58,804 nucleotides of DNA from a virus (lineage: Duplodnaviria > Caudoviricetes): the IMG/VR virus record IMGVR_UViG_3300046777_001311, positions 1 to 58,804 of that record. The stretch is one strand, 5' to 3'. Position 1 is the stretch's first letter. Each line of letters starts with the position of its first letter. Under the pieces are notes generated by a model. That model was given only the letters and a program-made list of their open reading frames with translations, made no database searches and was not told where the DNA came from. Below are positions 1 to 37,447 of the stretch, one piece after another. Made by a program: the position numbers and the translations under genes.

Positions 1-113
1 TCTTCAGATACAGAATATTTCTGCATCTCTTGATCAATACGGTCTTGTGACCATCCTTCAATGGCCGCTGTTGCAGCTACATCAGCTGGCAAATAGTTGT
101 TGTTACCTTCCAT
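1..113 (-). CDS. 5' part of the gene downstream of portal (MEGNNNYLPADVAATAAIEGWSQDRIDQEMQKYSVSE...), truncated by the window edge; possibly scaffold/head-associated protein
   Basis: ATG at 113 a few nt after the portal stop; frame stays open to the window edge; position between portal and MCP in the permuted order. Confidence 0.55.
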   Translation of the reverse strand, partial: MEGNNNYLPADVAATAAIEGWSQDRIDQEMQKYSVSE

Positions 114-118
114 AGTTA

Positions 119-2428: not shown

Positions 2429-2434
2429 TATTGG

Positions 2435-2442
2435 CAAATATA
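2435..2442 (-). promoter_or_regulatory. Bacteroidota sigma-A -7 element (TATATTTG) for the portal gene
   Basis: CAAATATA on + strand, 7 nt upstream of the ATG. Confidence 0.5.
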
Positions 2443-2488
2443 TTAATCTATTACAAAATTACTATGCACTTTTTAATATTTATTCAAC

Positions 2489-4906
2489 TTAATCAAAAAA
2501 TTCAAGCAAATCATTCATTATACGAGTTGAATTTGCCTCCTGAATGTATTTAGGGAACGCACTCTTTGAGCCAAGGAGAGCCATACCTCCTGCTGAGAAC
2601 AAGTCATAATTGGTCATTTCGCTTGGGTCGTTAATCTCTAAACACTCCTCAAGAAGCTCTAAGTGGTTATCATTCTTACCAAACATTCTAATATAGTTCA
2701 TGTACTCAGTAAAGATTTGCTCCTTATCCGCCTCACCCGTATAACGACCAGGCGCAGGAACTAACTTTCCATTAGCATCAATGTCATTTAATAAATACCC
2801 CTCATAACCCCACTCTCTAAACTTCTCTATCACAATGGGTACGTTTCGTTCAGGATATACGTGTGCCCCAAATAGAAGGGCCAATTTTAGCATGTCCTCG
2901 CAATATGTATTACCATCATCAACACGAATATTGTATGTTACAACAAACTTATTTGATATCCATTGATCTAAAGGCTTTTCGGCATAGTCTGTACTTGGGT
3001 CATGCTTGTAGAATACAGCACCGCCACCATTAGACTTCCTTCTACCTTTAACGTCTCGGTTATTAAACTTAAACGGGTCACATCCAAGTATATACTTGTT
3101 TACAACTTCAGATGCAGGATACCAACTATTCTTTTCGGAATCAAAGTACTTCTTATTTCTAAAATCCTCACTTGGTAAATATGAAACAACATACTTTCCT
3201 TCAGGATCATCCGTTACAACTACATTACTTCCAAAGCCATTAGACCAATCCAATCTAACAGTTCTTGTTCTAAACAATCTATCAAACTTTAATTGATTTA
3301 TTCTGCTTCTTAATATAGAAAGGTCAAAGTTTGAGTTCTTACTTGCTTTAGAGGCGGCTTCCTGTAAAGTCCATGGGTTATCTCGAATCTCACCATTCAA
3401 ACGAAGGTCAAGACCCTTCTCCTCAAGGTCCTTACGAGTATTCATTAAGATTGTTTTAGCTCCACGTGTAACGATATTCCCTTCAAGGTTTCTGACTGGC
3501 TCCACTGGATCTTCGATGATAGAGATTCCGTACTCGTCCACACATTCGTCATACCCGTCGTATGCTGGTATGAAAAGCGTGAATAAACCGCTTGTGGTGA
3601 ATCCGTTTTCGTTTCGTTCGTCATAGTATGATGATTTAATTAGGTCAAAAAACTCCTTACCACCCCCTGCCTCAAATTCACCGAGGGTAGACGTAAACAT
3701 AGCTAATCCATTGATACGCAAACCTTGAGATAGACACTTTCTAACAACGTCCTGCCATCTTCTTGGTATTGACACCCCACTATCTCCGTGCTTACCACCT
3801 TCATCATCTAAATATGCATGAAGCTTCTGACCGTCAAATGCTCTTTCGCTAGATGCACGAGCTTCAATCCAACCATCATGACTGGCTATTCTATTCTGAG
3901 ATACACCTTGAGTTCTTGCGGCTGGATATGTGAATGACAACTTCTCTTTAGGAAAGTCAGTACCATCATGTGCCGGTTTATAGAAAAATGGAATCTTTCT
4001 CCACGGCTTAACAACCTTATCTAAATAAACGTCCTCTTTTGCCTGCCTTTCTGTAATAGATTGAATACCACCCTTTTGCTGTTTGCGTTCAGTGGTTATA
4101 CAATACAATACACAAGATGCTTGAGATGTAGCACCAATACGTCTACGTTTTGGAAATATATATCCATAGCATGTTCTGTAACCCATGTCAACAACATACT
4201 TTCCCTCATCAATATAGGCGGCTGAATATTTAGATGCAAACTCCTCGGCATTCTTAACCCTTTGGAAGAACTTCTGACGAATATCCCCATCACTTCTATA
4301 TGTAACTCTATATTTATATACCGCCTCTGTTGTTGTATAGCAGTATTTAGCAAAGAGGAATATGCGGCGATCCAAATCTCGATACCAAGGAAGTGAGTCG
4401 GGTCTGGTCTCGTTTTGAATATCCCAAAAATTTAAATAAACATAATGCCAACCATCTATATATGTTGGCTTACCATTATTGAAAAACCAATATCCTTGAT
4501 ATCGTCTTTTAATCTGTATTTGTATCCATTCAATCTCATTCTTATACTCTAAACGATTCTCCTCCAATTCAGAGTATATATCATCTTGAGTAACCGCCTC
4601 CCTCTTTTTCATTCTCTTCTTTCTGCGTATAATGTCTTGAATGTTCTTTAACTTTTCAGGTACTACCTGATGTTTAAACTTTTGATTCTTAGGGTGTAGT
4701 CCGTATCCATCTATTAATTGAACCGCCTCATCCCAAGACTTACCATAAAATGATTCAACCGAAGGCAGCTTAACCTTCAAAGTTTCAAGAACGGGATCAT
4801 CGCCATGATATACAGCGTATTCATCCTCCTTCTTATATATTTCATGATACTTACTAATTGCCAACTTCTGGGAATATTTGATTAGCTTTTGATTTTCCTG
4901 GTACAA
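2489..4906 (-). CDS. terL: Terminase large subunit
   Basis: Walker A-like KRRRIGATS, Walker B YLDDEGGK, RNaseH-like nuclease ILGCDPF and C-terminal YDLFSA; next to portal; true start may be TTG at 4864. Confidence 0.9.
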   Translation of the reverse strand: MYQENQKLIKYSQKLAISKYHEIYKKEDEYAVYHGDDPVLETLKVKLPSVESFYGKSWDEAVQLIDGYGLHPKNQKFKHQVVPEKLKNIQDIIRRKKRMKKREAVTQDDIYSELEENRLEYKNEIEWIQIQIKRRYQGYWFFNNGKPTYIDGWHYVYLNFWDIQNETRPDSLPWYRDLDRRIFLFAKYCYTTTEAVYKYRVTYRSDGDIRQKFFQRVKNAEEFASKYSAAYIDEGKYVVDMGYRTCYGYIFPKRRRIGATSQASCVLYCITTERKQQKGGIQSITERQAKEDVYLDKVVKPWRKIPFFYKPAHDGTDFPKEKLSFTYPAARTQGVSQNRIASHDGWIEARASSERAFDGQKLHAYLDDEGGKHGDSGVSIPRRWQDVVRKCLSQGLRINGLAMFTSTLGEFEAGGGKEFFDLIKSSYYDERNENGFTTSGLFTLFIPAYDGYDECVDEYGISIIEDPVEPVRNLEGNIVTRGAKTILMNTRKDLEEKGLDLRLNGEIRDNPWTLQEAASKASKNSNFDLSILRSRINQLKFDRLFRTRTVRLDWSNGFGSNVVVTDDPEGKYVVSYLPSEDFRNKKYFDSEKNSWYPASEVVNKYILGCDPFKFNNRDVKGRRKSNGGGAVFYKHDPSTDYAEKPLDQWISNKFVVTYNIRVDDGNTYCEDMLKLALLFGAHVYPERNVPIVIEKFREWGYEGYLLNDIDANGKLVPAPGRYTGEADKEQIFTEYMNYIRMFGKNDNHLELLEECLEINDPSEMTNYDLFSAGGMALLGSKSAFPKYIQEANSTRIMNDLLEFFD

Positions 4907-5525
4907 CAGCTTCTGGAGCGAACATCATATATTCTTCAGGTCTTATACCCAAGTTTTCTTGAGCTAAGAATTTAGTTATCTCATGCTCAAGAGACTTAGT
5001 TGTTTCACCCTGCATGAAACGATCTCTCGCATCACTTAACTGACGTCTAACCGTCTCAATGTTAGCTAAGTGATTCTTCTGGTCGGATGGATCTTCTGGA
5101 AGTTCAAGTTCAAGAAGATTATACAACATCTCCTCCGCACGTATCATAATAGCCCAATCTTCAGGCTGTTGTAATCTCAAAAATAATAAAATCTTTGCTC
5201 GTACATTAGAGTTTTTATTCAGAAGTATGTCATTATATGCTTGCGGATATGAACCATCTTCATGAGGTTCTACACCCAACTCTCTTAATGCCCAAGACTT
5301 TCTTTTATTTAACTGCGGATAAGCCTCAATACCGGGACTTCCTGGACTGTACATGAGTATTATATACCTCATTACAAAATCAGGCGTTATATCGCTCGGC
5401 AGGCCTATGGATTGACCAAAGATAGTAGCGTGCTGTGATAAATCATGAAATTTAAATAGAACTTGATCCGTACTTGGTATACGGTCAATCCTATATTTCA
5501 TTTTTACAAATTTACTGCTATCCAT
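4854..5525 (-). CDS. Hypothetical protein, candidate terminase small subunit
   Basis: 223 aa helical protein overlapping the TerL start; function inferred from position only. Confidence 0.45.
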   Translation of the reverse strand: MDSSKFVKMKYRIDRIPSTDQVLFKFHDLSQHATIFGQSIGLPSDITPDFVMRYIILMYSPGSPGIEAYPQLNKRKSWALRELGVEPHEDGSYPQAYNDILLNKNSNVRAKILLFLRLQQPEDWAIMIRAEEMLYNLLELELPEDPSDQKNHLANIETVRRQLSDARDRFMQGETTKSLEHEITKFLAQENLGIRPEEYMMFAPEAVVPGKSKANQIFPEVGN

Positions 5526-6240
5526 TTTTCTTAGCTATTATAGAGTGTGATTGGAAATATACAAAAGGCTCTAAAATTCTATTATAAGAAAACTCAAGGT
5601 CTATTGGATTTATTCTTCTCGTCTTTACAACCTCACCAATATTACATTCAATCTTCTTCCAATTAGATTTCAAAGGGAAGTTCTTTCTCCAATCATATTT
5701 TAAATCTCCAGATGGAGTATACACTATCTCAAACATATCAGGCTCATCTCCAACAAGAGATGTGTGGTCTAAAATAATAAATGAACTTGGAGACTCCTTC
5801 TGAACCTTTTTACAAATTAAATAGTCATTTAAAGCCAAAAACTCTTCACCCCTCTTTCTTAGAACAAGCTCCTTATACGGCAAAAGGAGTAGATTTATAA
5901 CCTCTCCATTTTCTTCATACATATAATGAAACTCATCCTCTTTGTTAGTCAAGGAAATCTTAGCAATCGCGTCCTGCGTAAACCAAACTTCATCTCCAGA
6001 TTTAACCTCAACAGGTCCGTCCCAAGAATAGTTTAATTTAGGCCAGTCAGCTTGATCACTAACAGATACAACAGTTCCGCATCTAGCAGACGCCATAATC
6101 CTAGACTCATCGCTTTTTGCTGAAAAACTAAACTTCTTTTCTCCAAGAATAAAATCTGGAGTTAATACGTATGGTATACGTACAATTACACGACCTCTAC
6201 CCGGTCTGATTTTTTCTACCTCTTCCTTATTCAGAATCAT
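5518..6240 (-). CDS. GroES/Cpn10-like protein, apparently two tandem GroES-like domains
   Basis: IRPGRGRVIVRI...GTVVSVS...VEVKSGDEVWF matches the GroES pattern; second unit ALNDYLICKKV...IGEVVK. Confidence 0.65.
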   Translation of the reverse strand: MILNKEEVEKIRPGRGRVIVRIPYVLTPDFILGEKKFSFSAKSDESRIMASARCGTVVSVSDQADWPKLNYSWDGPVEVKSGDEVWFTQDAIAKISLTNKEDEFHYMYEENGEVINLLLLPYKELVLRKRGEEFLALNDYLICKKVQKESPSSFIILDHTSLVGDEPDMFEIVYTPSGDLKYDWRKNFPLKSNWKKIECNIGEVVKTRRINPIDLEFSYNRILEPFVYFQSHSIIAKKNG

Positions 6241-6346
6241 ATAACTAATTATAAGTCAACATCTCACGTCATAATCCAATAACTTTATGTTTTTGGGTTA
6301 TTTCATAATTGTATTTTTGTTTTGCCTTACCTTCCTGTTCAGAATT

Positions 6347-6372
6347 GGCGTCACAACGGTGGCGCCTTTTTT
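6347..6372 (+). terminator. Intrinsic terminator on the + strand, opposite to the flanking genes
   Basis: GGCGTCAC-AACG-GTGGCGCC (one G-U pair, pairs properly only on +) followed by T6. Confidence 0.6.
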
Positions 6373-6374
6373 GT

Positions 6375-7253
6375 TTAATGATCCCTTAACTGAACAAAGT
6401 TAGGAATCAACATGTTTGCCATTGAACCATTTTCTGACTCAATGACATAATCAAAAGATAGTATGTAGCTGCCAATAGGTTTTGGAGGTCTACCCTTCTC
6501 AATATGATATCCAAATTCGCCATCTCCATACTCCTCCTTGTAGGCGGCTGTTCTAATGTGATGAACATATCTGTGCTTAACTGAATATCCTGATCTTGGA
6601 TTGTGTTCTAAAGATTCTTGAGAATCAATAACATGATATAGTTCGTGAACGTGACCCTGCCAAATACAATCAGCTCCAGATATCATTACCCCCATACGAT
6701 TGTTTTGGATAACACCCTTTGTAACAGGTCCTCCACCACCACTACCATGATAATATTTCATGTTAAACGCATGACTTGAATGGCTCTTATATTTCATTTG
6801 AAGTTTCCACCAACCTCCATAACCTCCAGTATAAATAGATGTCTTGTTCTTATAATTCATAAGATCAACAAATCTCTGAAGAGGGTCAGTCTCTGTATTT
6901 TTAATAATTGCCGTCTCATGGTTTCCATAACCAATCCAAGCAATGTTTTGAGCGTATGGACTCCACCAGTTAACAGCATCCTCTATTACGGCGTCCAAAT
7001 AATTATGTACATTATGTTCAGGTCTAATATCCTTCTTGCTTCTGCGAGGATCCCACTTACCCTGCATTAAACAAAAAAAATCGCCATTAATAACGATTCC
7101 CATATCCTGCTCTAATGCCATGTCTAAGTGTTTTTTCAGAATATCCCTTTTACATTTTGGGTTGTCCCAATGGATATCAGACATCATCAACCATTTTTTA
7201 TCAGAAGAGCATTCTGTAATCAAAATGTTTTTTTTGTACTTTGTAGTTATCAT
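6375..7253 (-). CDS. Calcineurin-like metallophosphoesterase
   Basis: Motifs SDIHWD, NGDFF, GNHE, YHG, GHVH. Confidence 0.85.
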   Translation of the reverse strand: MITTKYKKNILITECSSDKKWLMMSDIHWDNPKCKRDILKKHLDMALEQDMGIVINGDFFCLMQGKWDPRRSKKDIRPEHNVHNYLDAVIEDAVNWWSPYAQNIAWIGYGNHETAIIKNTETDPLQRFVDLMNYKNKTSIYTGGYGGWWKLQMKYKSHSSHAFNMKYYHGSGGGGPVTKGVIQNNRMGVMISGADCIWQGHVHELYHVIDSQESLEHNPRSGYSVKHRYVHHIRTAAYKEEYGDGEFGYHIEKGRPPKPIGSYILSFDYVIESENGSMANMLIPNFVQLRDH

Positions 7254-7549
7254 TAGTTGTATTTAAATTTACCAAGATCCTTTACATACTTTCCGTATGC
7301 TATAGAAATCTCTTTGGCATTTCCCTTCACTATTATGTAGTTATTTGTAATCAAGTAAAGCATTGACCTTCTTTCTGAGTATCCATTTTCACTTACATCA
7401 TGTGATATATATGAAATATCATCCATTCTAATGTACGATGGAACCCATTGCATAGACCTGGAATCTGAAAATTCCCCGTCAGAAGACACCTCCATAAGAA
7501 CGTAGCAATTCAAAAGACCATTTTCATCTATGAAGAAATCTTTACTCAT
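7253..7549 (-). CDS. Hypothetical protein
   Basis: ORF; start moved to ATG 7549 (MSKDFF) because the upstream part overlaps a terminator. Confidence 0.6.
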   Translation of the reverse strand: MSKDFFIDENGLLNCYVLMEVSSDGEFSDSRSMQWVPSYIRMDDISYISHDVSENGYSERRSMLYLITNNYIIVKGNAKEISIAYGKYVKDLGKFKYN

Positions 7550-7599
7550 GCTGGTAAATTTACTAAAGGTCACAACTACAATAACAAAATTGTTAATAT

Positions 7600-7625
7600 A
7601 AAAAATAAAAGGGGCCGAAGCCCCT
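7600..7625 (-). terminator. Intrinsic terminator after the SSB gene
   Basis: Minus strand AGGGGC-TTCG-GCCCCT followed by a T-rich tract. Confidence 0.85.
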
Positions 7626-7630
7626 CTCAA

Positions 7631-7984
7631 TTAAAATGGTAAATCATCATCACCTTCTGATACCGCCTCCTGTTTTGGCGCTATCTTGCTACTCTTTTGT
7701 TGAGGAGCCGCCTCTTTAACTTCAATACCATACACATTCAATGATGTATAGTATTTACCATTATACTCTTTAGAACGAATGTTAAACTTAATGTTTGAAA
7801 CATCACCAATAGTCGGCTTTGGAGTTGAATCCAAAGATTTTCCGCCTAACGTAAATGCGTAAACATCCTTGTAGACTGTTCCGTTAACATCTCTTTCTGT
7901 CTCGACAACGAACTCAACGAAGTCGAATTGTCCGCGAGTCTGAAGCTCGCTGACAGCTACCACTTTTCCTGTAATATTAAACAT
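7631..7984 (-). CDS. Single-stranded DNA-binding protein, DUF3127/OB-fold type
   Basis: ITGKVVAV...FNIRSKEYNGKYYTSLNVY core with acidic tail GDDDLPF; ATG at 7984. Confidence 0.8.
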   Translation of the reverse strand: MFNITGKVVAVSELQTRGQFDFVEFVVETERDVNGTVYKDVYAFTLGGKSLDSTPKPTIGDVSNIKFNIRSKEYNGKYYTSLNVYGIEVKEAAPQQKSSKIAPKQEAVSEGDDDLPF

Positions 7985-7999
7985 GTAATTAATTTTTAA

Positions 8000-8030
8000 C
8001 AAATATAAAACTTTATTCTACATTGTCAAA
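8000..8030 (-). promoter_or_regulatory. Bacteroidota promoter driving ssb (-33 TTTG, -7 TATATTTG)
   Basis: CAAATATA 8000-8007 and CAAA 8027-8030, 19-nt spacer. Confidence 0.7.
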
Positions 8031-8207: not shown

Positions 8208-8984
8208 ATGCAAAATACAGGTCAAATCGTAAGAGCTAAGAGTGAAAAGGATTTCACTTTAATTAGCAACAAGCTTCTTCAAGATTGTTCTATGTCTTTT
8301 GAAGAAAAGGGTATGTTAGTGTTTCTATTAAGCCTGCCTGAGGATTGGGTTTTATACAAATCAAATCTGCACGAGAAAACAAACCAGCCAAAGGGTACTG
8401 TTGATCGTGTTTTTAAGCTGCTTCAAGATAAGGGGTACATTGTAAGTGTCAGGGTAATTGATGAGAAAACAAAGGTTTTCCAAGGTTGGAATCATGTGGT
8501 TTATGAAAGCCCGACTACGGAGGATAGCCGACATCGACAAACGCCGGAGTCGGAGAATGCCGATATCGGTCAAACTGCCCCTATACAAATACACAGTATT
8601 ACAAATACACATATAAACAAAACAAAGAAAGAAAATATAAAAAGAAAGAAAGTTGATTTTGAGCCGCCTACTCTTGATGAAGTTAAAAGATACTTTATAG
8701 AAAACGGATACTCACCAATCAAAGGGGAGCAGGCTTTCAACTACTACTCAAGTTCAAACTGGGTAGATAAAAATAACAAGCAGGTTCTTAATTGGAAATT
8801 GAAAATGCAAATGTGGTTTAAGCCTGAGGATAAGATAGATGTTTCAAAGATGGCTTTTGAAGTTGAGAACCCTGAAAGCTATGAGGGTTACAACAAGTGG
8901 CTGCACGTGGACCCAAAATACACCAAGTCGCTGGACGAAAAAAATATATGGAGATACAAAGCAAAACCAATCGGATTTAAATAA
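8208..8984 (+). CDS. Phage replication initiator (replisome organiser/lambda-O-like architecture)
   Basis: N-terminal FTLISNKLLQD...SFEEKGML wHTH-type region; linker carrying iterons; C-terminal FEPPTLDEV...FNYY...NWK module; upstream of primase-helicase. Confidence 0.7.
   Translation: MQNTGQIVRAKSEKDFTLISNKLLQDCSMSFEEKGMLVFLLSLPEDWVLYKSNLHEKTNQPKGTVDRVFKLLQDKGYIVSVRVIDEKTKVFQGWNHVVYESPTTEDSRHRQTPESENADIGQTAPIQIHSITNTHINKTKKENIKRKKVDFEPPTLDEVKRYFIENGYSPIKGEQAFNYYSSSNWVDKNNKQVLNWKLKMQMWFKPEDKIDVSKMAFEVENPESYEGYNKWLHVDPKYTKSLDEKNIWRYKAKPIGFK
8511..8660. repeat. Putative replication origin: four palindromic CCG-N4-CGG iterons followed by an A-rich tract
   Basis: CCGACTACGG 8511, CCGACATCGA 8528, CCGGAGTCGG 8544, CCGATATCGG 8560 (spacing 17,16,16); A-rich 8580-8660. 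Confidence 0.65.
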
Positions 8985-9195: not shown

Positions 9196-9410
9196 CAACA
9201 CCGAGACAAAAGGCTATCGAACTAATTAGTAAATTAGGATTTCAAAGCGCCAAGTTGGTAGCCTCCAACATGACCTACGAGTTAGGATTATTAGCGCTAA
9301 CAGCAGACACAAAAGAGCATTCTGATGAAATAAAGGACAGAAGATTCTATTGGGACACAGTATTTGACATAATCAAAAAGGAATGGCATCAGAGAAAATT
9401 ATCAATTTAG
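9192..9410 (+). CDS. Hypothetical protein
   Basis: ATGA overlap with the previous ORF. Confidence 0.6.
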   Translation: MTTPRQKAIELISKLGFQSAKLVASNMTYELGLLALTADTKEHSDEIKDRRFYWDTVFDIIKKEWHQRKLSI

Positions 9411-11098
9411 AAAATAGAAAGACCTACATCGTAAACGCAGATCGTGTAGGTGAAAATTCTATGCCGTGTCCTGTATGCTCTCAAGACAGAAAGAAGAAGG
9501 ATGTTAAGTGCATGTCTTTCAATACAGTAGAGGGTGTAGGTAAATGTAATCATTGCGGCGCCCGATTTGTTAGGAAGAATGAGGACCGCGAGACACCAAG
9601 ATACGTGAGACCTGTACTACCATCAAATGTAACATCACTACCGGATAGACTTGTTGAATGGTTCAAGGAGAGGGGCATATCATCATCTACACTAATCGAC
9701 TTCAAGATTACGCATGGTAGACAGTTCTTCCCACAAGTATCTAAGGAGCGTAACTGCATAAACTTCAACTACTTCAGAAATGAGGACCTGATTAACGTGA
9801 AGTACAGGGACGCAGAAAAGAACTTCAGGCTTGTAAAGGATGCCGAACTAATTCTATATAATCTGGACAGCATAGACCAAAAATATGTTGTAATCACAGA
9901 GGGGGAGATAGATGCCATGTCCTACCACGAGGTAGGTGTTAAATCCGTAGTATCTGTTCCAAATGGAGCCTCAAAGAACAACCGTCTGCAATATATTGAC
10001 AACTGTATAGACGAGCTTGACGGAGTGGAAAGGATATATATAGCAACCGATGATGATGAGCCAGGAAGAGTTCTTCAAGAGGAGATAGCGAGACGATTAG
10101 GAAAGGAGAGGTGTAGACGTGTATCATTCTTTGGTAAGAAGGATGCGAACGAACTTTTGATAGCTGATCCATTAATGCTACCCAAGACATTGGAAGCCGC
10201 CGAAGAGTACCCCCTTGAAGGAGTGGTAACAGTAGATAATCTATCTGAAGATATATGGAGACTTAGAAGGGATGGTTTAAAGAGGGGTTGTGATATATCT
10301 ATAGACGAGTTCAATGACCTGCTAACATTTGTCCCTGGTTATGTTACAGGGGTAACAGGAATACCAAACCACGGTAAGTCGGAGTTCCTAGATCAGATTA
10401 TAGTTGACCTATCCGTAAAGCACGATTGGAGATTTGGAATATTCTCGCCTGAGAACTACCCACTTCAACTGCACTTTGCAAAGTTGGCAAGCAAGCTACT
10501 CGGAGTGTCCTTTAACGAGACAAATGACGCTCAAATCATATCGGCTATGAACTACTGCCGTGACAACTTCTTCTACATAGTACCGGAGGAGGATAATAGC
10601 CTCGATTCAATAATAGAACACGCTAAGAACCTTGTAAAGAGGTACGGCATAAACGCAATCGTTATAGACGCGTGGAATAAGCTTGACCACAACTACGTAG
10701 GTACAGAAACACAGCACATATCCAAAGAACTCGATAAGCTTATATCATTCTGCCGTAAGTATAGCGTACACGCCTTCGTTGTAGCACACCCAACTAAAAT
10801 GTCAAGAGACCCAAAGACACAAGCGTATAACGTGGCGACACTATATGACATGGCTGGATCCGCCCACTTCTACAACAAGATGGATAACGGTATATCCGTA
10901 TACCGAGAGTTCTTCCCCGATGGATCCTCACAGCCGCAAATCTATGTTCAAAAGGTAAAGTTCAAACATTGGGGGCAACAGGGTAGCGTAACACTACAAT
11001 ACGATGTTCCAACAGGTAGATATTATTTTTTTGGAAAAAGAGATAGAAGTTCTTATATTAGCAACGAATTTATCCACAAACAGGAATTAGATCTATGA
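9383..11098 (+). CDS. DNA primase-helicase (T7 gp4/Twinkle-like)
   Basis: Zn finger CPVC...CNHC, TOPRIM ITEGEIDAMS and TDDDEPG, SF4 Walker A GIPNHGKSE, IDAWN, VAHP. Confidence 0.92.
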   Translation: MASEKIINLENRKTYIVNADRVGENSMPCPVCSQDRKKKDVKCMSFNTVEGVGKCNHCGARFVRKNEDRETPRYVRPVLPSNVTSLPDRLVEWFKERGISSSTLIDFKITHGRQFFPQVSKERNCINFNYFRNEDLINVKYRDAEKNFRLVKDAELILYNLDSIDQKYVVITEGEIDAMSYHEVGVKSVVSVPNGASKNNRLQYIDNCIDELDGVERIYIATDDDEPGRVLQEEIARRLGKERCRRVSFFGKKDANELLIADPLMLPKTLEAAEEYPLEGVVTVDNLSEDIWRLRRDGLKRGCDISIDEFNDLLTFVPGYVTGVTGIPNHGKSEFLDQIIVDLSVKHDWRFGIFSPENYPLQLHFAKLASKLLGVSFNETNDAQIISAMNYCRDNFFYIVPEEDNSLDSIIEHAKNLVKRYGINAIVIDAWNKLDHNYVGTETQHISKELDKLISFCRKYSVHAFVVAHPTKMSRDPKTQAYNVATLYDMAGSAHFYNKMDNGISVYREFFPDGSSQPQIYVQKVKFKHWGQQGSVTLQYDVPTGRYYFFGKRDRSSYISNEFIHKQELDL

Positions 11099-11628
11099 TT
11101 AAGGAACTGACATCAATGGTTAAGCCACACATGGTAAACCAATTCTTAGAAACAATCATCAATAACGAATACGATAAAATAAAAGACGAAGCTATGGAAA
11201 TGCTTGAAGAGATACGCTGCAACATTGATGTTAAGCTGCATATCAAAATGTTTATGGAGGTTACACTCTCATGTTGCGCTGACGCATTTGGAACTACAGC
11301 CGATGAAATTCGAAGCCGCAATAGACGAAGCCACATAATAGACGCCAAAAGAGCCTACATGTGGATTGTAAAGGTATCAACAGGATGCACGCACAGATTC
11401 ATTAGCGACAACCTAGAGATGCACCACTCATCTGTTATACACCACCTCAACACAGTAGAGGCTTACCTAATGTATAACCCCGACTTTAAAACAAAACTCA
11501 ACTCTATCGTAACCGACTTAAAAAGAGTTGGATACACAGAGCCATCAGAGCAATTTGTTAACCATGTTAATAAAGCGGAGCAAAGAAAGAGAAGAAATAG
11601 GGATCGAATAAATAAGAACCGGTTGTAA
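11095..11628 (+). CDS. Stand-alone DnaA C-terminal (domain IV) HTH DNA-binding protein
   Basis: TTADEIRSRNRRSHIIDAKRAYMWI...ISDNLEMHHSSVIHHLNTV mirrors DnaA domain IV (S.xR...ARxxAMY...RDHTTVxHA). Confidence 0.7.
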   Translation: MIKELTSMVKPHMVNQFLETIINNEYDKIKDEAMEMLEEIRCNIDVKLHIKMFMEVTLSCCADAFGTTADEIRSRNRRSHIIDAKRAYMWIVKVSTGCTHRFISDNLEMHHSSVIHHLNTVEAYLMYNPDFKTKLNSIVTDLKRVGYTEPSEQFVNHVNKAEQRKRRNRDRINKNRL

Positions 11629-11633
11629 ATTTG
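11626..11633 (+). promoter_or_regulatory. -7 promoter element TAAATTTG
   Basis: Matches TAnnTTTG just upstream of the 50-aa ORF. Confidence 0.45.
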
Positions 11634-11654
11634 TAGGTTCTAAAACTTACAAAT

Positions 11655-11807
11655 ATGGATATCAATAACCTAAATTTTCTCAAGTCACAAATCAAAGCGT
11701 TCCACCCAAATTGGTCGGAGCAGCAGGTAGAAATGGAAGCCATCAAAATAATAAACTCTCCAGACGATGAAGAGGATGATGATGGATGTTTATATTGTGG
11801 TTCATAA
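11655..11807 (+). CDS. 50-aa acidic peptide ending in CxxCGS (not in the supplied ORF track)
   Basis: MDINNLNFLKSQIKAFHPNWSEQQVEMEAIKIINSPDDEEDDDGCLYCGS*; A-rich leader and upstream -7 element. Confidence 0.7.
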   Translation: MDINNLNFLKSQIKAFHPNWSEQQVEMEAIKIINSPDDEEDDDGCLYCGS

Positions 11808-12013
11808 CTTATTAGCTCCGTTGGCCAGGAGATCGTAAAACACAGAATGCCTCTTGAATCGTACCAGCTGTACTATTATGGTATAGACGAACTCAATGCA
11901 CACTATCTGTTCTCATCGTATAGGAGATAGAGTTAGCCTTCTTGATGTCATTTAAAAAGGTTGACAGCTTGGAAAGACAGCCACCTTCGGGTGTGACCTT
12001 AAAACTAAATAAC

Positions 12014-12544
12014 ATGAGCAAGCACGCGAGTCTGCCATATCACATATACATCAATGTAAACAACGCCTTCCTAGGACCAAATGTGCCAAAAGGAACAACC
12101 AGAGGTATTGTCCATGCTGTTTACGGAAGAGAGTATCAAGTACTTCTGTTCCACGTCATGCTTGAAAGTGGTGCTAATTGGAGTGGACTTCCTATTCAGG
12201 CTATCTCAACTACAGATAACTTTGACCTAGATCACCACGCTCTAATGCCTTGGAAGGTTATGGGTGAGGATATAGACGTAGTTGAATTTAAATATTTAGA
12301 AGGATTACAGGTAAATACAAGAGCCGGTATTGGTAGACACACAGGAATAATAGTAGACTGGAAGGATGGATACTCAAGATATCAATCAGAACACAAGCCG
12401 CTAAACCTAATCATCCTAAACCAAGGTCAGATATGTTTGATGCCAAATAACTACTGTACATACGAAGATAAGCACTTTACAGAAGAGTCGGCAAAGGAGA
12501 ATCTCAAACACTACAGACGTGGCGATGAAATATACTGGGAATAA
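12014..12544 (+). CDS. Hypothetical protein
   Basis: ORF with ATG 12014 (MSKHASLP) after an A-rich leader. Confidence 0.7.
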   Translation: MSKHASLPYHIYINVNNAFLGPNVPKGTTRGIVHAVYGREYQVLLFHVMLESGANWSGLPIQAISTTDNFDLDHHALMPWKVMGEDIDVVEFKYLEGLQVNTRAGIGRHTGIIVDWKDGYSRYQSEHKPLNLIILNQGQICLMPNNYCTYEDKHFTEESAKENLKHYRRGDEIYWE

Positions 12545-12554
12545 AATATAAGTT

Positions 12555-12788
12555 ATGGAAAACAAGAAGCAAACCTCGGTAGATGTCCTATTCGAAATAC
12601 TATGGGAAACCCCAAAAGATAAATGGGAGTGGAATGCCGTACTCAAGAAGGTAAAGGAGTTGCACAAGGAGGAGATAAGAATTGCATATATGGATGGAGC
12701 GTTTGAAAAAATTAGGCATTTAGATGGTAAAGAATTTATGATGCCAACGGATTACTACAACGAAACATTTGGAGGTAACAATGAGTAA
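12555..12788 (+). CDS. Hypothetical protein (KQTxV...HKEEI...YYNETF type small phage protein)
   Basis: ORF in operon. Confidence 0.65.
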   Translation: MENKKQTSVDVLFEILWETPKDKWEWNAVLKKVKELHKEEIRIAYMDGAFEKIRHLDGKEFMMPTDYYNETFGGNNE

Positions 12789-13023
12789 GGTAATAATAGA
12801 ATTTGACCGAGTAGAAGAGGCAGAAGAACTCCGTACAGCCCTCGATGGACACAAGTACAAAATGCTCCTCTGGGAACTCGACCAAAAACTCCGTAGCGTC
12901 TCAAAGTACGGATCTGCTATAAGAGGGTCAGGACAAGCAACCCCGGAACAAATGGATGTGTGTGCCGACATACGAGAACTCCTCAGAGAAATGCTCCAAG
13001 AAGATAATCTAACAATAGAGTAA
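12781..13023 (+). CDS. Hypothetical protein
   Basis: ORF with ATG 12781; last gene before the long non-coding region. Confidence 0.65.
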   Translation: MSKVIIEFDRVEEAEELRTALDGHKYKMLLWELDQKLRSVSKYGSAIRGSGQATPEQMDVCADIRELLREMLQEDNLTIE

Positions 13024-13152
13024 GTCACAATATAGTCTTACATTTCAGTCATAAGGTCAAAATATAGGCTTACGGTATTAGATATCATACAATTTTTTAA
13101 TGTAATAAACTTGACATTCTTGTCTCAAATATCTACTATACTTGCGACAGCC

Positions 13153-13203
13153 ATTGTGGAAAATAATCACCAGAATCAAGCTTATTGTGGAAAATAATCC
13201 ACA
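13153..13203. repeat. Direct repeat ATTGTGGAAAATAATC x2 containing DnaA-box-like 9-mers
   Basis: TGTGGAAAA (rc TTTTCCACA, fits TTWTNCACA) at 13155 and 13186, 31 nt apart; TAATCCACA at 13195. Confidence 0.5.
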
Positions 13204-13436
13204 AAAGGGTATCGGAAACTTATAGATTGTCAAATTAAGTAAAATATGATAGACAAATAGATTTGATGTTAAAGAATGGACATCAAAGATGAACTTCAAG
13301 TTTCCTATACCATTTCGTTGACGCCAACAAGATGGTTAGCAGTCCCAACCAACCGTAGACACATAGTCGACACACACCCCCCCCACCAACAAACCAAAAT
13401 AGCCCAAGCGTGGAACACGCAGTCAAAATATATCCC

Positions 13437-13452
13437 CGTTTCACGTGGAACA
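13437..13452. promoter_or_regulatory. parS: parS site 1 (CGTTTCACGTGGAACA)
   Basis: 15/16 match, read on the minus strand, to TGTTNCACGTGAAACA. Confidence 0.75.
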
Positions 13453-13500
13453 GCAGAACGTAACAGAACATAGTGTGGAGGGGGTCATATATACATCCGG

Positions 13501-13638
13501 AGTGTACATATCGGTGGGCAAACCGCGTTTTTGCGAAAGGGGTGGGTCTCTAGTTAGTGTACGTTTCACACTAACCTTAGTGTACATTGTACACATACAT
13601 ATTGTACATTTTACAATAACCTTAGTGTATGCTGTACA
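13501..13638. repeat. Cluster of AGTGTA / TAACCTTAGTGTA repeats with an inverted repeat
   Basis: TAACCTTAGTGTA at 13572 and 13617; GTTAGTGT/ACACTAAC inverted repeat 13553-13575; further TGTACA units. Confidence 0.6.
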
Positions 13639-13647
13639 CTTTCTTCG

Positions 13648-13777
13648 TTATTTAGATTCATTCTAAATTAGGACTGCATATTGCAAATGTCAATTTATTT
13701 TTGTATGGCAGTTTGCTATAGTGAAAAAAGTTGACATTTCCAAATTTCACAGCTTATTTATACTCATTCTAAATTAG
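13648..13777. promoter_or_regulatory. Two 19-bp palindromic operator-like boxes (Fur-family-like)
   Basis: ATTTAGATTCATTCTAAAT 13650-13668 and ATTTATACTCATTCTAAAT 13756-13774, within 24-bp direct repeats. Confidence 0.5.
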
Positions 13778-13939
13778 CAGAAAATTTGCTTTTGTCATTT
13801 TTATTTCGTATTCGTGCGCGCGCGGGAATACCTATTACAAAGAATAGAGGGCAAAAGTGGTAATACAAATTTATTTCGCTGATAATCAATCATTTAGATA
13901 CGAGTCGAAAAAAACAGATAAAAAAAAATGCAAAAATAG

Positions 13940-13971
13940 TTGACTTTACTATTTCAATCGCCGTATCATTG
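13940..13971 (+). promoter_or_regulatory. Candidate early promoter
   Basis: TTG 13940-13942 and TATCATTG 13964-13971 (one mismatch to TAnnTTTG) after an A-rich UP-like tract. Confidence 0.4.
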
Positions 13972-14124
13972 CAGGGCCAATAGGGAATAAACGTATTCAG
14001 ATTGACAAGGTGAAAAAAAAGACATTAAGAAAAAAGGGACATGTGCCTAATAGGATAACTATGCCCTTGTGGAGACCACACGTAAAACGGAACTTAATGG
14101 GATAACTATGTAAATTTTAAAGCT

Positions 14125-14328
14125 ATGAATATAATAGATTCGGCATCGGTATACTATGCACAACCCGATGCACGTAAACAAGTGCATAAAGTTGGACGAA
14201 TTACGCGAACACATAAGAAAATTTGGGTGCAAAATGCACGTGAGGTAAGTTTCAATGCCGTTTGTAAGGTAATTGAAAAAAGTGAACGTGCACAAAAGCA
14301 ACGTGATGTGAGACGTGCGAAGCGTTAA
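14125..14328 (+). CDS. Small basic hypothetical protein, first early gene
   Basis: ATG with A/T-rich leader; Arg/Lys-rich 67 aa. Confidence 0.5.
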   Translation: MNIIDSASVYYAQPDARKQVHKVGRITRTHKKIWVQNAREVSFNAVCKVIEKSERAQKQRDVRRAKR

Positions 14329-14329
14329 T

Positions 14330-14345
14330 TGTTCCACGTGGAACA
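14330..14345. promoter_or_regulatory. parS: parS site 2 (TGTTCCACGTGGAACA)
   Basis: Perfect 16-bp palindrome of parS type, intergenic. Confidence 0.85.
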
Positions 14346-14430
14346 TTGAATTTAGCAACGGCTAAATGTAACTATATATTAGCATAGTGGAGGCCACACT
14401 ATAAACGGACGAATAGTAAACAAGGTACAT

Positions 14431-14446
14431 TGTTTCACGTGAAACA
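14431..14446. promoter_or_regulatory. parS: parS site 3 (TGTTTCACGTGAAACA)
   Basis: Exact canonical chromosomal parS consensus, intergenic. Confidence 0.9.
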
Positions 14447-14553
14447 TTGGTGCATATTCCTTAGTGGGATAGGTCTATACTTTGGCGGCTTCAAAGTTGC
14501 AAGGTGTAGGTTTAGGTACTATGCTACGCTGAAACCAATTTAAATTTCATACA

Positions 14554-14886
14554 ATGAAACAAGTATCTTTTGTATTAACGCAAGAAAACGATGTTAAATT
14601 TTACTTGCGTGGAACTTTCGAGTTCGAGGGTCAAGACGTTCAAAACGAAGTCTTTTTCCGTATCGTTAAATTCATGGAACGTGTAAAGCGTTTCAAGATG
14701 AAAACAAATTTCAAGTTCGGTAAAAAGTTTACCGTTGACATGAAAGTTGACGGGAAAACGTACCGAAGTACCGACCTATTCTTTGAGTTCGATGATTCAG
14801 GAACTGACTTCAAAGGTGGCATACGTCTTAATAAGAACAACACCTTTCGTCTACATGAGGTTTTAACTGAAATGGTTGAATCTTAA
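14554..14886 (+). CDS. Hypothetical early protein
   Basis: 110-aa ORF followed by a terminator. Confidence 0.75.
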   Translation: MKQVSFVLTQENDVKFYLRGTFEFEGQDVQNEVFFRIVKFMERVKRFKMKTNFKFGKKFTVDMKVDGKTYRSTDLFFEFDDSGTDFKGGIRLNKNNTFRLHEVLTEMVES

Positions 14887-14906
14887 TTGGCGGCTATTCA
14901 AAATTC

Positions 14907-14929
14907 AAGGGGGCTTCGTGCCCCTTTTT
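14907..14929 (+). terminator. Intrinsic terminator
   Basis: GGGGC-TTCGT-GCCCC followed by TTTTT. Confidence 0.8.
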
Positions 14930-14952
14930 CATTCACTAAAACTTAACGTAAA

Positions 14953-15129
14953 ATGATTACTCTCACAGTGCTCTCAGTTTTATTCACCATTTTATGTACA
15001 ATCAAAGTACAAAAGCAAAAAAGGTACGGACAATTTTCAATAGATAGCGGTTGGTATTTCGCTCAACTCATGAGTTTAGGATTCATAATCTCAATGGCTG
15101 TAGTGGCTATACTCGCTTACCTACCATAG
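14953..15129 (+). CDS. Small membrane protein, 58 aa (not in the supplied ORF track)
   Basis: MITLTVLSVLFTILCTIKVQKQKRYGQFSIDSGWYFAQLMSLGFIISMAVVAILAYLP*; two hydrophobic segments. Confidence 0.65.
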   Translation: MITLTVLSVLFTILCTIKVQKQKRYGQFSIDSGWYFAQLMSLGFIISMAVVAILAYLP

Positions 15130-15145
15130 TGTTCCACGTGAAACA
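15130..15145. promoter_or_regulatory. parS: parS site 4 (TGTTCCACGTGAAACA)
   Basis: 16/16 match to TGTTNCACGTGAAACA, starting immediately after a stop codon. Confidence 0.9.
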
Positions 15146-15175
15146 TAAAAAAGTATAACCATAAAAACAAACAAC

Positions 15176-15379
15176 GTGAAAAATCTAATCAATCAATTCT
15201 TAGTAGTGTTGCTATATGCAATGCTATTTGCGTTCACATACGCATCAATTTGCGGCTTAATCGCCCTAATATTTTGGACAAGCTACATAAGTGTGGCAAC
15301 TTATCCAGCTTCGATACTCATACTCATGGTGTCGGTTATATGTGTTGGATGTTACAAACTTTGTGAACTTAAATTCTAA
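15176..15379 (+). CDS. Small membrane protein
   Basis: GTG start after an A-rich leader; two hydrophobic segments. Confidence 0.65.
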   Translation: MKNLINQFLVVLLYAMLFAFTYASICGLIALIFWTSYISVATYPASILILMVSVICVGCYKLCELKF

Positions 15380-15568: not shown

Positions 15569-16816
15569 ATGGAAGAAGAAAAAACTCCAGAAACAATCCT
15601 CCTATACAACGGAGAAGAAGTCAGCACCGACACAACAACGGGTTGCTTTGACTATGGTCAATATCAAGGCCAACTATACGCCAATGGTGATGATGATGTT
15701 ATCATCTTGACAAGTGGTGATACATGTCACCGCGATGATGATTGGCACACCACAAATTGCGGTGATACATTCCACGAAGATGAACAGGACAGCCTTGACA
15801 TAATCTATGCGGACTATGATGGTGAGTACGCCTATTCATCAGATTGTACCTATGGTATAGTAGACCGTAGGGGTCATGAGGGGTATTGGTTAGACACATA
15901 TCATGACCATGAAGCCGTATATTCAAATAGAGATAGCACTCATTTCATTGACTCACAAGTAGCACGTGAACATGACTACATCTTTGATGATAATCAAGAC
16001 GATTGGGTACACATAGATGATTATGAGGGTGATAATGATGATGATGAGGGTGAGGATACGTCCTCTTATGTTAAGTCATATCATGGCTATTCAAGACAGT
16101 TTGTTTGTGACTCTTCGGCGGCTTGGAAGTTTGGTGTCGAGGTCGAGAAGGAGGACTGCGATGCTAAGACCATGGAGTACCCCGATACTATATACAACGC
16201 TGTCAAGTGGTGTAAAGAATCGGACGGGTCTCTCAATGACTACTCTGGCTTTGAGTTGGTGTCGCCCGTGTATGACCTCATGGACAAGGATACTTGGTTG
16301 CGTGACTTTTCACACCCACTTATCGAACCGCTACTCAATGCTAAACATAGTTCATCATGTGGTGGTCACATCCACATATCATCAAGTATGTATACACCTG
16401 ATGAGATTATGTTAGGACTTAGCGGCTTCCTACCTATACTGTACAGCCTTTACAAGAGACGTATGTTTGCCGACTACGCACGTACTAAGAAGAAGTATCA
16501 GTACCTAACTGAGAAAACTAAGAGGGCGAGTGTATATGTGCAAGATAGGACTTGTGAGTTCCGTATCTTCCCTGCTGTACGTAGTAAGGATAACTTGATA
16601 TGGCGGCTTGACCTACTACGCATCTTCATTGACAACTTCAATGCCTCTGAGCGTGATGTCCTCAAGATGTTGTGTAATACATCACACCCCCTTCATATTC
16701 ATATCAAGAATATGGTTGGTGATGATAAAATGACTGAGAAGATTGATGAGTTCATCGGCTTCAGTAAGACGTGGAATAACTTTAATTTAGATAATGACGA
16801 TAAAACAATCAAATAA
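15569..16816 (+). CDS. Amidoligase (COOH-NH2 ligase type 2) with an acidic N-terminal extension
   Basis: FGVEVE, DGSL, GFELVSP, CGGHIHIS, CEFRIF motifs. Confidence 0.85.
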   Translation: MEEEKTPETILLYNGEEVSTDTTTGCFDYGQYQGQLYANGDDDVIILTSGDTCHRDDDWHTTNCGDTFHEDEQDSLDIIYADYDGEYAYSSDCTYGIVDRRGHEGYWLDTYHDHEAVYSNRDSTHFIDSQVAREHDYIFDDNQDDWVHIDDYEGDNDDDEGEDTSSYVKSYHGYSRQFVCDSSAAWKFGVEVEKEDCDAKTMEYPDTIYNAVKWCKESDGSLNDYSGFELVSPVYDLMDKDTWLRDFSHPLIEPLLNAKHSSSCGGHIHISSSMYTPDEIMLGLSGFLPILYSLYKRRMFADYARTKKKYQYLTEKTKRASVYVQDRTCEFRIFPAVRSKDNLIWRLDLLRIFIDNFNASERDVLKMLCNTSHPLHIHIKNMVGDDKMTEKIDEFIGFSKTWNNFNLDNDDKTIK

Positions 16817-16818
16817 TT

Positions 16819-17721
16819 ATGTGCATAGCAATCTTAAACCCTGAAGATGTTACTCTTGATAAGAGTGTTCTTCGCACGTGTTGGGACAATAACACGGATG
16901 GAGCTGGTATTCTATACGTAGATGGCGGCGTCCTAAAAACACACAAGGAGATGTCTAACTTTGATTCATTCTATGATGAGTATCTACGTATACGTAGTGC
17001 TCACAAGGAGTCTCAAGTAGTCATACACTTCCGTATATCTACACATGGCAAGGTCAATGAGACTAACTGCCACCCATTTATTGTAGATGATTATTGGGGT
17101 TTTGTGCATAACGGTATCATATCCAATGCACCACACCATGCTGATTACAGCGACACCTATATGTTTAATCAAGAGGTACTTCAAAAGCTACCTAAGGATT
17201 GGTTATTCAATGACGCCATCTATGAACTTGTTGTAGGTTACATTGGCTCATCTAAGTTGCTGTTTCTTAATGCCGACAACGATGCCTATATTCTTAACGA
17301 AGATATGGGTGTGTGGGACTTAGGCTGTTGGTTTAGTAACAAGACGTACAAAGAGTCACGCTACTTTGACTATGGCGGTAAGCAGGTATGGAAGTCGGCG
17401 GCGACCCCTACTATCACCTCCTCCTCTACTACTAAAGATTATTCTACTAAGTGGTGGGACCGTAATGATTACTCACCTAAGTGGGAGTGGGATGATAAGA
17501 AAAAAGATTATGTTAACAAGTCGGCGGCTGCGGATGTTTTTGATGATGAGGATGTGGATGTGGACAACTACCCATACGCCGAGTGGCCGACTGATGCGTC
17601 TGAGTTATTCATAGACACTTGCGATGGCTGTGATTCTCCAGAGGTGCTTGTCGCCTACGATACATCATACAACGCTTGCCTATGTAAAAGCTGCCACGAT
17701 GATTTGTACACACCCTTTTAA
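16819..17721 (+). CDS. Class II (Ntn) glutamine amidotransferase
   Basis: N-terminal Cys (MCIAI), NxDGAG, HFRISTHG, NCHPF, HNGII, SDT. Confidence 0.9.
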   Translation: MCIAILNPEDVTLDKSVLRTCWDNNTDGAGILYVDGGVLKTHKEMSNFDSFYDEYLRIRSAHKESQVVIHFRISTHGKVNETNCHPFIVDDYWGFVHNGIISNAPHHADYSDTYMFNQEVLQKLPKDWLFNDAIYELVVGYIGSSKLLFLNADNDAYILNEDMGVWDLGCWFSNKTYKESRYFDYGGKQVWKSAATPTITSSSTTKDYSTKWWDRNDYSPKWEWDDKKKDYVNKSAAADVFDDEDVDVDNYPYAEWPTDASELFIDTCDGCDSPEVLVAYDTSYNACLCKSCHDDLYTPF

Positions 17722-36969: not shown

Positions 36970-37447
36970 TTGCTAACTCTTGATCAAAGATAATTAAACC
37001 ACAAGTATCACCGTTTATTACGGCTAATCTAGCTGAATAATCACCATATAATCCAGCCGACTTTCTCTGAATCTCTATAAACTCTAATAGTATTTGCTGA
37101 CAAGTTGGATCAGCAGTTTTATAAAAATCAGTATAGAACTCTAATAGTGACACCTCACTTTCATAAGCAACCTCAATGGCATCTACAATACCTTCAATCT
37201 TTTCATCACATTTATCAATCATAGGCATCTCTGCTAACACGCCTACATCATTTAAGAAGTCGGCTATCTTTTGATAATGTTCTACCTCCTCCTCGCTCTC
37301 ATGCTTGAAAAACTTATACGACCCAAGATAACCCAAGACCTGAAGCTGATTAGCAATATGGCGATATAGGTGAGATACATACATCTCTTGATATAAAGCT
37401 TGATTGAATTTATCAATGCAATCATTTGAAATTAAAGCGTTTTTCAT
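36959..37447 (-). CDS. Ferritin-like protein
   Basis: QEMYVSHLY, ESEEEVEH, AYESE, EIQ ferroxidase-site pattern; ATG 37447 overlaps the upstream stop (TAATG). Confidence 0.85.
   Translation of the reverse strand: MKNALISNDCIDKFNQALYQEMYVSHLYRHIANQLQVLGYLGSYKFFKHESEEEVEHYQKIADFLNDVGVLAEMPMIDKCDEKIEGIVDAIEVAYESEVSLLEFYTDFYKTADPTCQQILLEFIEIQRKSAGLYGDYSARLAVINGDTCGLIIFDQELANGL

Follow-up and report, generated by a model that had tools for sequence, protein, structure and literature searches.

The window of this study is the whole of IMG/VR virus record IMGVR_UViG_3300046777_001311, a linear stretch of 58,804 bases from the Caudoviricetes that is estimated to be 89% complete and represents a lytic-looking, uncultured phage. 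Between its replication genes and position 15145, where the end of the replication module and the main non-coding control region are located, this phage carries four 16-bp inverted repeats of the chromosomal parS type. No gene for the partition proteins ParB or ParA was found in the record, and the parS word is that of Bacteroidia chromosomes. As the sequence stands, ParB of the host probably loads at the four sites and assembles a partition complex on the phage control region.

The parS cluster, its conservation and its host counterpart

Each site matches TGTTNCACGTGAAACA, and mismatches were counted against TGTTNCACGTGNAACA. The sites, and a relic of a fifth, are as follows:

13437-13452, parS A (CGTTTCACGTGGAACA), one mismatch
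14330-14345, parS B, no mismatches; starts 2 nucleotides (nt) after a stop codon
14431-14446, parS C, no mismatches; a perfect palindrome
15130-15145, parS D, no mismatches; directly after the stop codon of an open reading frame (ORF) of 58 amino acids (aa)
13402-13417, no strand assigned, relic parS of which the right half alone remains; in the relative L007 a full parS stands at the aligned place

Against these four words, 0.11 are expected from shuffles, and none of 100 shuffles reached the observed count; the four sites named in the sequence-only reading, an earlier interpretation of this DNA made without database searches, are therefore borne out. The cluster comprises three exact words and one near-exact word within 1.7 kb, 2.3-4 kb downstream of the primase-helicase gene and amid iteron-like repeats. 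Three sites match exactly at all 14 fixed positions, and variation is found at two positions that also vary in the words of host genomes, plus position 1. All four are non-coding and lie outside conserved ORFs; a 65-aa ORF overlaps site A, but its start is missing from the relative L004. Site B was flagged as terminator-like in a scan, and a role of the sites as terminators was rejected on their weak RNA hairpins (-1.8 to -9.3 kcal/mol, z from -0.3 to -1.9), none of which has a U-tract.

Relatives were taken from 30 IMG/VR loci retrieved with the primase-helicase as query, 11 of them close (77-100% identity) and 19 distant (39-47%). The syntenic position is reached in six of the 11 close relatives: five carry two to four parS words (four each in L004, L006 and L007, three in L013, and two in L014 before the contig ends), and the contig of the sixth, L011, ends inside a parS word. 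L005, L008, L009 and L010 end before the parS region, as does L012, whose contig stops 2.4 kb after the last shared ORF. The shared order is paired repeats, parS A, non-coding blocks, a variable small ORF, parS B and C, a 110-aa ORF family and parS D; site A is double, as two adjacent sites, in L007 and L014. Among orthologous sites the 16-bp cores are identical at 386 of 400 positions (96.5%), compared to 339 of 1000 (34%) for the 20-bp flanks, which indicates that selection acts on the parS words themselves.

A six-frame search of the whole record gave zero matches to ParB_N, HTH_ParB and ParA-type AAA_31 (PF02195, PF17762 and PF13614), and ParB_N was found in none of five related records that are 32-54% complete. 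The parA and parB genes that would lie beside the centromere in a self-encoded ParABS system were not found. Since the phage encodes no ParB or ParA, host ParB would be the only plausible reader of the sites.

The host is probably a Flavobacteriia-type member of the Bacteroidota. This assignment from sequence is made because a Shine-Dalgarno motif lies ahead of 3 of 42 gene starts, which equals the 8% background, because the large terminase matches phages of Flavobacteriaceae, and because a TAtgTTTG element of the TAnnTTTG type, the Bacteroidota -7 promoter consensus, is conserved in the relatives. The terminase matches number 87 phage records at 26-28% identity; 86 are named, all of them Flavobacteriaceae phages (68 from Flavobacterium, 15 from Cellulophaga, two from Tenacibaculum and one from Maribacter).

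The host class was sampled as 101 genomes from the class of a Bacteroidia metagenome-assembled genome (MAG), including the unpublished genome G093. The exact parS word occurs in 69 of the 101 (68 of 100 without G093), with one copy in 35 genomes, two in 28, three in five and twelve in one; the reversed control word was found in a single genome of the 101. Where there are several copies they mostly fall within 0.05-2 kb, and one ParB and one DnaA are encoded in all five genomes checked. The phage word is the word of these chromosomes, for a host lineage assigned as above. The genome with 12 exact words has seven of them in an array of 99-bp period (G078:C24:13202-13810). The exact word is also present in at least 119 IMG/VR stretches, a count that may take in prophages or ParB-encoding contigs. 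One such contig of 116,662 bases (L168) has 11 exact words within about 4 kb, and several contigs of about 11 kb (L150, L171 and L182) have paired words at both ends.

The DnaA domain IV-like protein and other elements of the region

The sequence-only reading placed the parS sites in a larger scheme, in which a DnaA domain IV-only protein, DnaA-box-like repeats, an integration host factor (IHF) site, Fur-like palindromes and a polarity switch of a Chi-like motif together made the phage DNA resemble a host chromosome. The elements that bear on this scheme, together with the neighbouring genes, are the following:

8208-8984, + strand, replication initiator or DnaD-like helicase-loader protein (PHROGs phrog_186, 4707, 270 and 428, E 1e-14 to 7.5e-9)
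9383-11098, + strand, primase-helicase with Toprim and DnaB_C (Pfam Toprim_2 7.6e-12, DnaB_C 1.5e-6)
11095-11628, + strand, stand-alone DnaA domain IV-like helix-turn-helix protein, 177 aa; its start overlaps the primase-helicase stop
13111-13146, + strand, promoter-like P1 (TTGACA, 17 nt, TACTAT, then TAtaCTTG), putative in function; 10/12 in a consensus scan, kept in L004
13153-13175 and 13184-13206, + strand, two 23-nt direct repeats with core GTGGAAAATAATC, 31 bp apart, from a repeat search
13459-13549, no strand assigned, strongly conserved non-coding blocks (CAGAACATAGTGTGGAGGGGGTC...), from a four-genome alignment
13555-13639, no strand assigned, iteron-like TGTACA-rich 40-nt repeats, kept in L004 and partly in L006
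13651-13773, no strand assigned, two 17-bp palindromes (TTTAGAATnATTCTAAA type, copies at 13651 and 13757) flanking back-to-back TTGACA boxes; conserved
13884-13896, + strand, IHF-consensus match, judged to be chance
13940-13969, + strand, promoter-like P3; its second element is TAtgTTTG in relatives
14125-14328, + strand, 67-aa basic ORF of no known family; unrelated small ORFs are found instead in L004 and L006
14554-14886, + strand, 110-aa ORF; just downstream of parS B/C in L004, L007 and L013
14953-15129, + strand, 58-aa hydrophobic ORF, with parS D after its stop

The description of the 177-aa protein as DnaA domain IV alone was correct. It scores 32.9 bits with Pfam Bac_DnaA_C (cut-off 31.5), and the DnaA models of NCBIfam match it over the last approximately 120 positions only. 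A five-member family profile aligns to residues 338-434 of T. maritima DnaA (E=1.2e-4), and the segment MHHSSVIHHLNTV, invariant in the family, aligns with the recognition-helix part of DnaA. The best fold matches of the AlphaFold2 (AF2) model (pLDDT 78.5) are 3pvp and 1j1v, complexes of the DnaA DNA-binding domain with DNA, with a TM-score by target of 0.85-0.87 and a root-mean-square deviation of 1.4 A. The protein shares the fold and the Pfam family of DnaA domain IV, but it differs from DnaA in having N-terminal helices and a basic tail of its own, and as it is without the AAA+ domain III and domains I-II it is not a full initiator. A profile search of 1.84 billion representatives gave 578 matches at E<=1e-3; stand-alone proteins of this kind are common in metagenomes, because 142 of the best 150 of these matches are at most 232 aa long (the other eight exceed 300 aa). 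All 11 close relatives have the gene, and none of the 19 distant ones does. It is a product of the phage, not a host reader.

The proposal of DnaA-box-like repeats at 13155-13203 holds for the repeats and not for the boxes. The 13-bp core occurs in the window at 13156 and 13187 and nowhere else in exact form, just downstream of P1, and is found twice, 31 bp apart, in L004, L007, L013 and L014; in L006 it has diverged. The letters that resemble a DnaA box are not kept: they change in L004, L006, L007 and L014, the TGTGGA start turns into AGTGGA, and only the window has TAATCCACA in the second copy. The DnaA-box consensus TTATNCACA has no exact match in 13000-15200. One-mismatch boxes number 10 there, compared to 4.0 +/- 1.8 in local shuffles (1 of 300 reaches 10), and other 2.2-kb windows of the record reach nine. 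With no exact box and with variable box-like letters, this is not a DnaA-box cluster of the oriC type. That the DnaA domain IV-like protein binds the paired repeats is speculative, and the occurrence of both within one clade is not independent evidence for it.

The remaining signals of the scheme did not survive comparison with chance or with relatives. The IHF match at 13884 exists, but the window has 11 such matches where 7.1 +/- 2.5 are expected, and this one is exact in one of four aligned genomes. In the region, no site lies within five mismatches of the 19-bp Fur consensus (not a Bacteroidota Fur motif). The single six-mismatch match overlaps the repeat at 13159, and the conserved palindromes at 13651 and 13757, with more than six mismatches, are real but not Fur-like. 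The Chi-like motif was not named in the earlier reading; a polarity scan of all 5-8-mers with at least 12 occurrences gave no convincing switch at 13-15 kb. Strongly skewed words flip at 21-35 kb, where the gene strand flips, and the sole candidate at 14.3-14.9 kb is CGAAGC, split 6 versus 7. The relatives keep the parS cluster and the paired repeats, but not the IHF match or the box-like letters. Of the chromosome-mimic scheme there remains the parS cluster as a signal probably read by a host protein; the IHF, Fur and Chi signals are at chance level or absent, and there is no cluster of DnaA boxes.

The control region is likely the phage origin. The iteron-like repeats are candidates for an origin or a regulator array, and no repeats comparable to them were found around the initiator gene; the palindrome pair (13651 and 13757) resembles the operators of a phage switch. 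The sign of GC skew changes at about 8 kb and about 28.7 kb, together with the gene strand. The conserved block after parS A gave no consensus RNA structure (-1.9 kcal/mol, one covarying pair), and neither Rfam (E up to 1) nor a tRNA scan matched anything in the region. The 110-aa ORF has no Pfam, PHROG or NCBIfam family, Atlas feature scores of at most 0.77, a low-confidence model and five close homologues. An island of CGCGCGCGGGAATACCT in AT-rich DNA at 13813-13832 is, like 13459-13549, better kept across four genomes than nearby coding DNA. L007 has an additional 337-aa ORF (6486-7499 of that locus) that separates the shared 80-aa ORF from the repeats; going by a sequence motif, its N-terminus may be that of a DNA cytosine-5 methyltransferase.

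A 58-bp non-coding element at 13296-13353, also found in L007 and L011, is 81% identical to G003:C2:2884-2941, part of an 81.6-kb contig of a Bacteroidia MAG. This contig (loci L236-L240) shares three of 51 window proteins, namely the endolysin-like protein, the C-terminal part of a 637-aa protein (59% identity) and a 135-aa ORF, and the first two matches are at opposite contig ends. It has the appearance of another phage, possibly circular, that was binned with the Bacteroidia genome and has a lysis and receptor-type module in common with the window.

Genes of the record run leftward from 119 to 8002, rightward from 8208 to 28707 and leftward again from 28667. PHROGs and Pfam scans, limited to the ORFs ahead of the structural ones that start at 32210, identified a portal, large terminase, single-stranded DNA-binding protein (SSB), RecE-like exonuclease, RecT, MazG and an endolysin-like protein. 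Family searches in all six frames of the complete record yielded neither an integrase nor a resolvase above chance; one resolvase candidate, an 11.3-bit sub-threshold match inside the primase gene, was taken as chance. A DNA search of cultured phage records gave no match to 11000-15200. Elsewhere in the window, 15569-17721 encodes an Amidoligase_2-like protein of 415 aa with an acidic N-terminus and, after it, a class-II glutamine amidotransferase-like protein, a pair kept in L004, L006 and L007, and a 2718-aa ORF occupies 37447-45603 within the structural module. By primase offset, L004, L005 and L009 start within a few hundred bases of the left end of the window (1-400), which may reflect either the physical end of the genome or a place where assemblies repeatedly break.

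Competing explanations of the cluster

If host ParB reads the sites, then, following what is known of ParB biology, its dimers would load at the four parS words, form closed CTP clamps and spread by sliding across the neighbouring kilobases, so that a partition complex would form on the phage DNA. Host ParA, and possibly SMC, could then act on replicating phage genomes to position or segregate them while the cells go on dividing, and ParB would be drawn off the host chromosome as well. The DnaA domain IV-like protein and the paired 13-bp repeats might act beside this as a phage-specific DNA-binding protein and its site, a link that is speculative.

Several points weigh against loading of host ParB. 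A benefit of segregation to a lytic phage is not evident, and no lysogeny or plasmid-maintenance gene was found in the record. The host lineage is itself inferred. As much as 11% of the genome may be absent, and a divergent ParB-like reader beyond the reach of the Pfam models could be encoded among the many unannotated small ORFs. In five of five draft Bacteroidia genomes the parS cluster is on a different contig from dnaA and parB, and an oriC-adjacent position of parS therefore cannot be read from the host genomes. No parS within one mismatch occurs in the 19 distant loci, in three distant records examined in full (98-100% complete), in Flavobacterium phage elemoE or in MW202828; the cluster is a gain specific to the clade.

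The cluster may be chiefly a decoy that titrates host ParB off the host origin and thereby diverts SMC loading and ParA control, in the service of takeover and not of segregation. Three exact words and one near-exact word in 1.7 kb exceed what is found in 100 of the 101 host-class genomes (at most three), phage copies would outnumber the host sites after replication, and the lack of lysogeny or plasmid genes would be expected. The cis evidence is nevertheless the same as for a working partition complex and cannot separate use from titration, and a short lytic cycle would presumably gain little by disturbing chromosome segregation; we consider a decoy unlikely, though worth keeping in mind. About as doubtful is a further reading, in which the clade, which has no lysogeny or partition genes, persists as a segregating episome in a carrier state in dividing Flavobacteriia cells through nothing but a host-strength parS cluster beside its origin, with host ParB, ParA and SMC treating the phage as a small chromosome and the DnaA domain IV-like protein on its repeats providing origin-side control. 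If true, this would be a minimal module of borrowed chromosome identity and a general mechanism for the non-lysogenic persistence of Bacteroidota phages.

It is improbable that the 16-bp palindromes serve a phage-encoded function as operators or RNA hairpins, for instance with a regulator from a small ORF or as a terminator, and resemble parS only by convergence. Sites B and D do come right after stop codons, B was the site flagged as terminator-like, and several adjacent small ORFs belong to no known family. Convergence would have to account for the full set of fixed positions at three sites and for variation mostly where host words vary; the hairpins are weak and without a U-tract, and conservation extends to sites B and C but not to the small ORF upstream of them. 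Still less credible is a composite oriC mimic read jointly by host DnaA, IHF, Fur, RecBCD/Chi and ParB. The parS sites are real, one-mismatch DnaA boxes are modestly enriched and the region adjoins replication genes, but there is no exact box, the box-like letters vary, IHF and Fur matches are at chance level and there is no polarity switch. A passive relic, with host origin-proximal DNA captured once and the sites functionless in the phage, would fit their confinement to one clade, but hardly the difference in identity between cores and flanks or the position of the sites between phage ORFs in conserved order. A BLAST search of 13000-15200 against 201 Bacteroidia genomes gave only matches of 23-58 bp in eight genomes, at E 9e-8 and weaker, and the best of these is on the phage-like contig G003:C2; we give a relic very little credence.

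Relation to known partition systems

Centromere sites on phage genomes are familiar from the plasmid-prophages P1 and N15 and from mycobacteriophage ParABS systems, which encode their own ParA and ParB and have parS sequences of their own. There the sites serve episome maintenance, whereas the phage studied here encodes neither protein. Its word is that of the chromosomal ParABS system, in which ParB (Spo0J) forms CTP clamps and acts with ParA and in SMC loading, and it is clustered in few copies, as in 69 of 101 Bacteroidia genomes; here, however, it is on a 59-kb virus with no parAB on the replicon.

The nearest parallel is the host-type parS of the Bacillus phages phi29 and Nf, with its Spo0J-dependent spore entrapment. 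According to PMC2731898, phi29 carries five host parS sites together with Spo0A boxes and uses Spo0J for entry of its genome into the prespore; the host sites serve both segregation and the sensing of host physiology. The suggestion in the sequence-only reading that its combination of signals might be undescribed is, on that account, wrong in principle, as phi29 carries host Spo0J and Spo0A sites (PMC2731898). Phages phi29 and Nf have in common with the present phage a lytic-type life cycle, no ParB of their own and several copies of the host chromosomal parS, and in gene content the present record, with no ParB or ParA found, is of the phi29 orphan type. The differences are that the host is probably a non-sporulating member of the Bacteroidota, so that spore entrapment cannot be the payoff, that all four sites fall within a single cluster of 1.7 kb next to the replication module, and that a second host-factor site, which in phi29 is that of Spo0A, could not be shown. 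Two other reports, PMC10286716 and PMC12704722, concern phage-encoded ParB-like proteins and not orphan sites, and no description of orphan host-type parS outside the phi29/Nf group was found in the literature searched. The principle of host parS on a phage is already known; what is new is the non-sporulating host lineage and the tight four-site cluster beside the replication module.

If host ParB does load at this cluster, the phi29 strategy is not confined to Bacillus or to sporulation. It would then be a wider route by which phages without lysogeny genes position, segregate or persist in dividing cells, or by which they disarm host chromosome organisation, and would bear on the unexplained long-term coexistence of Bacteroidota with virulent phages.

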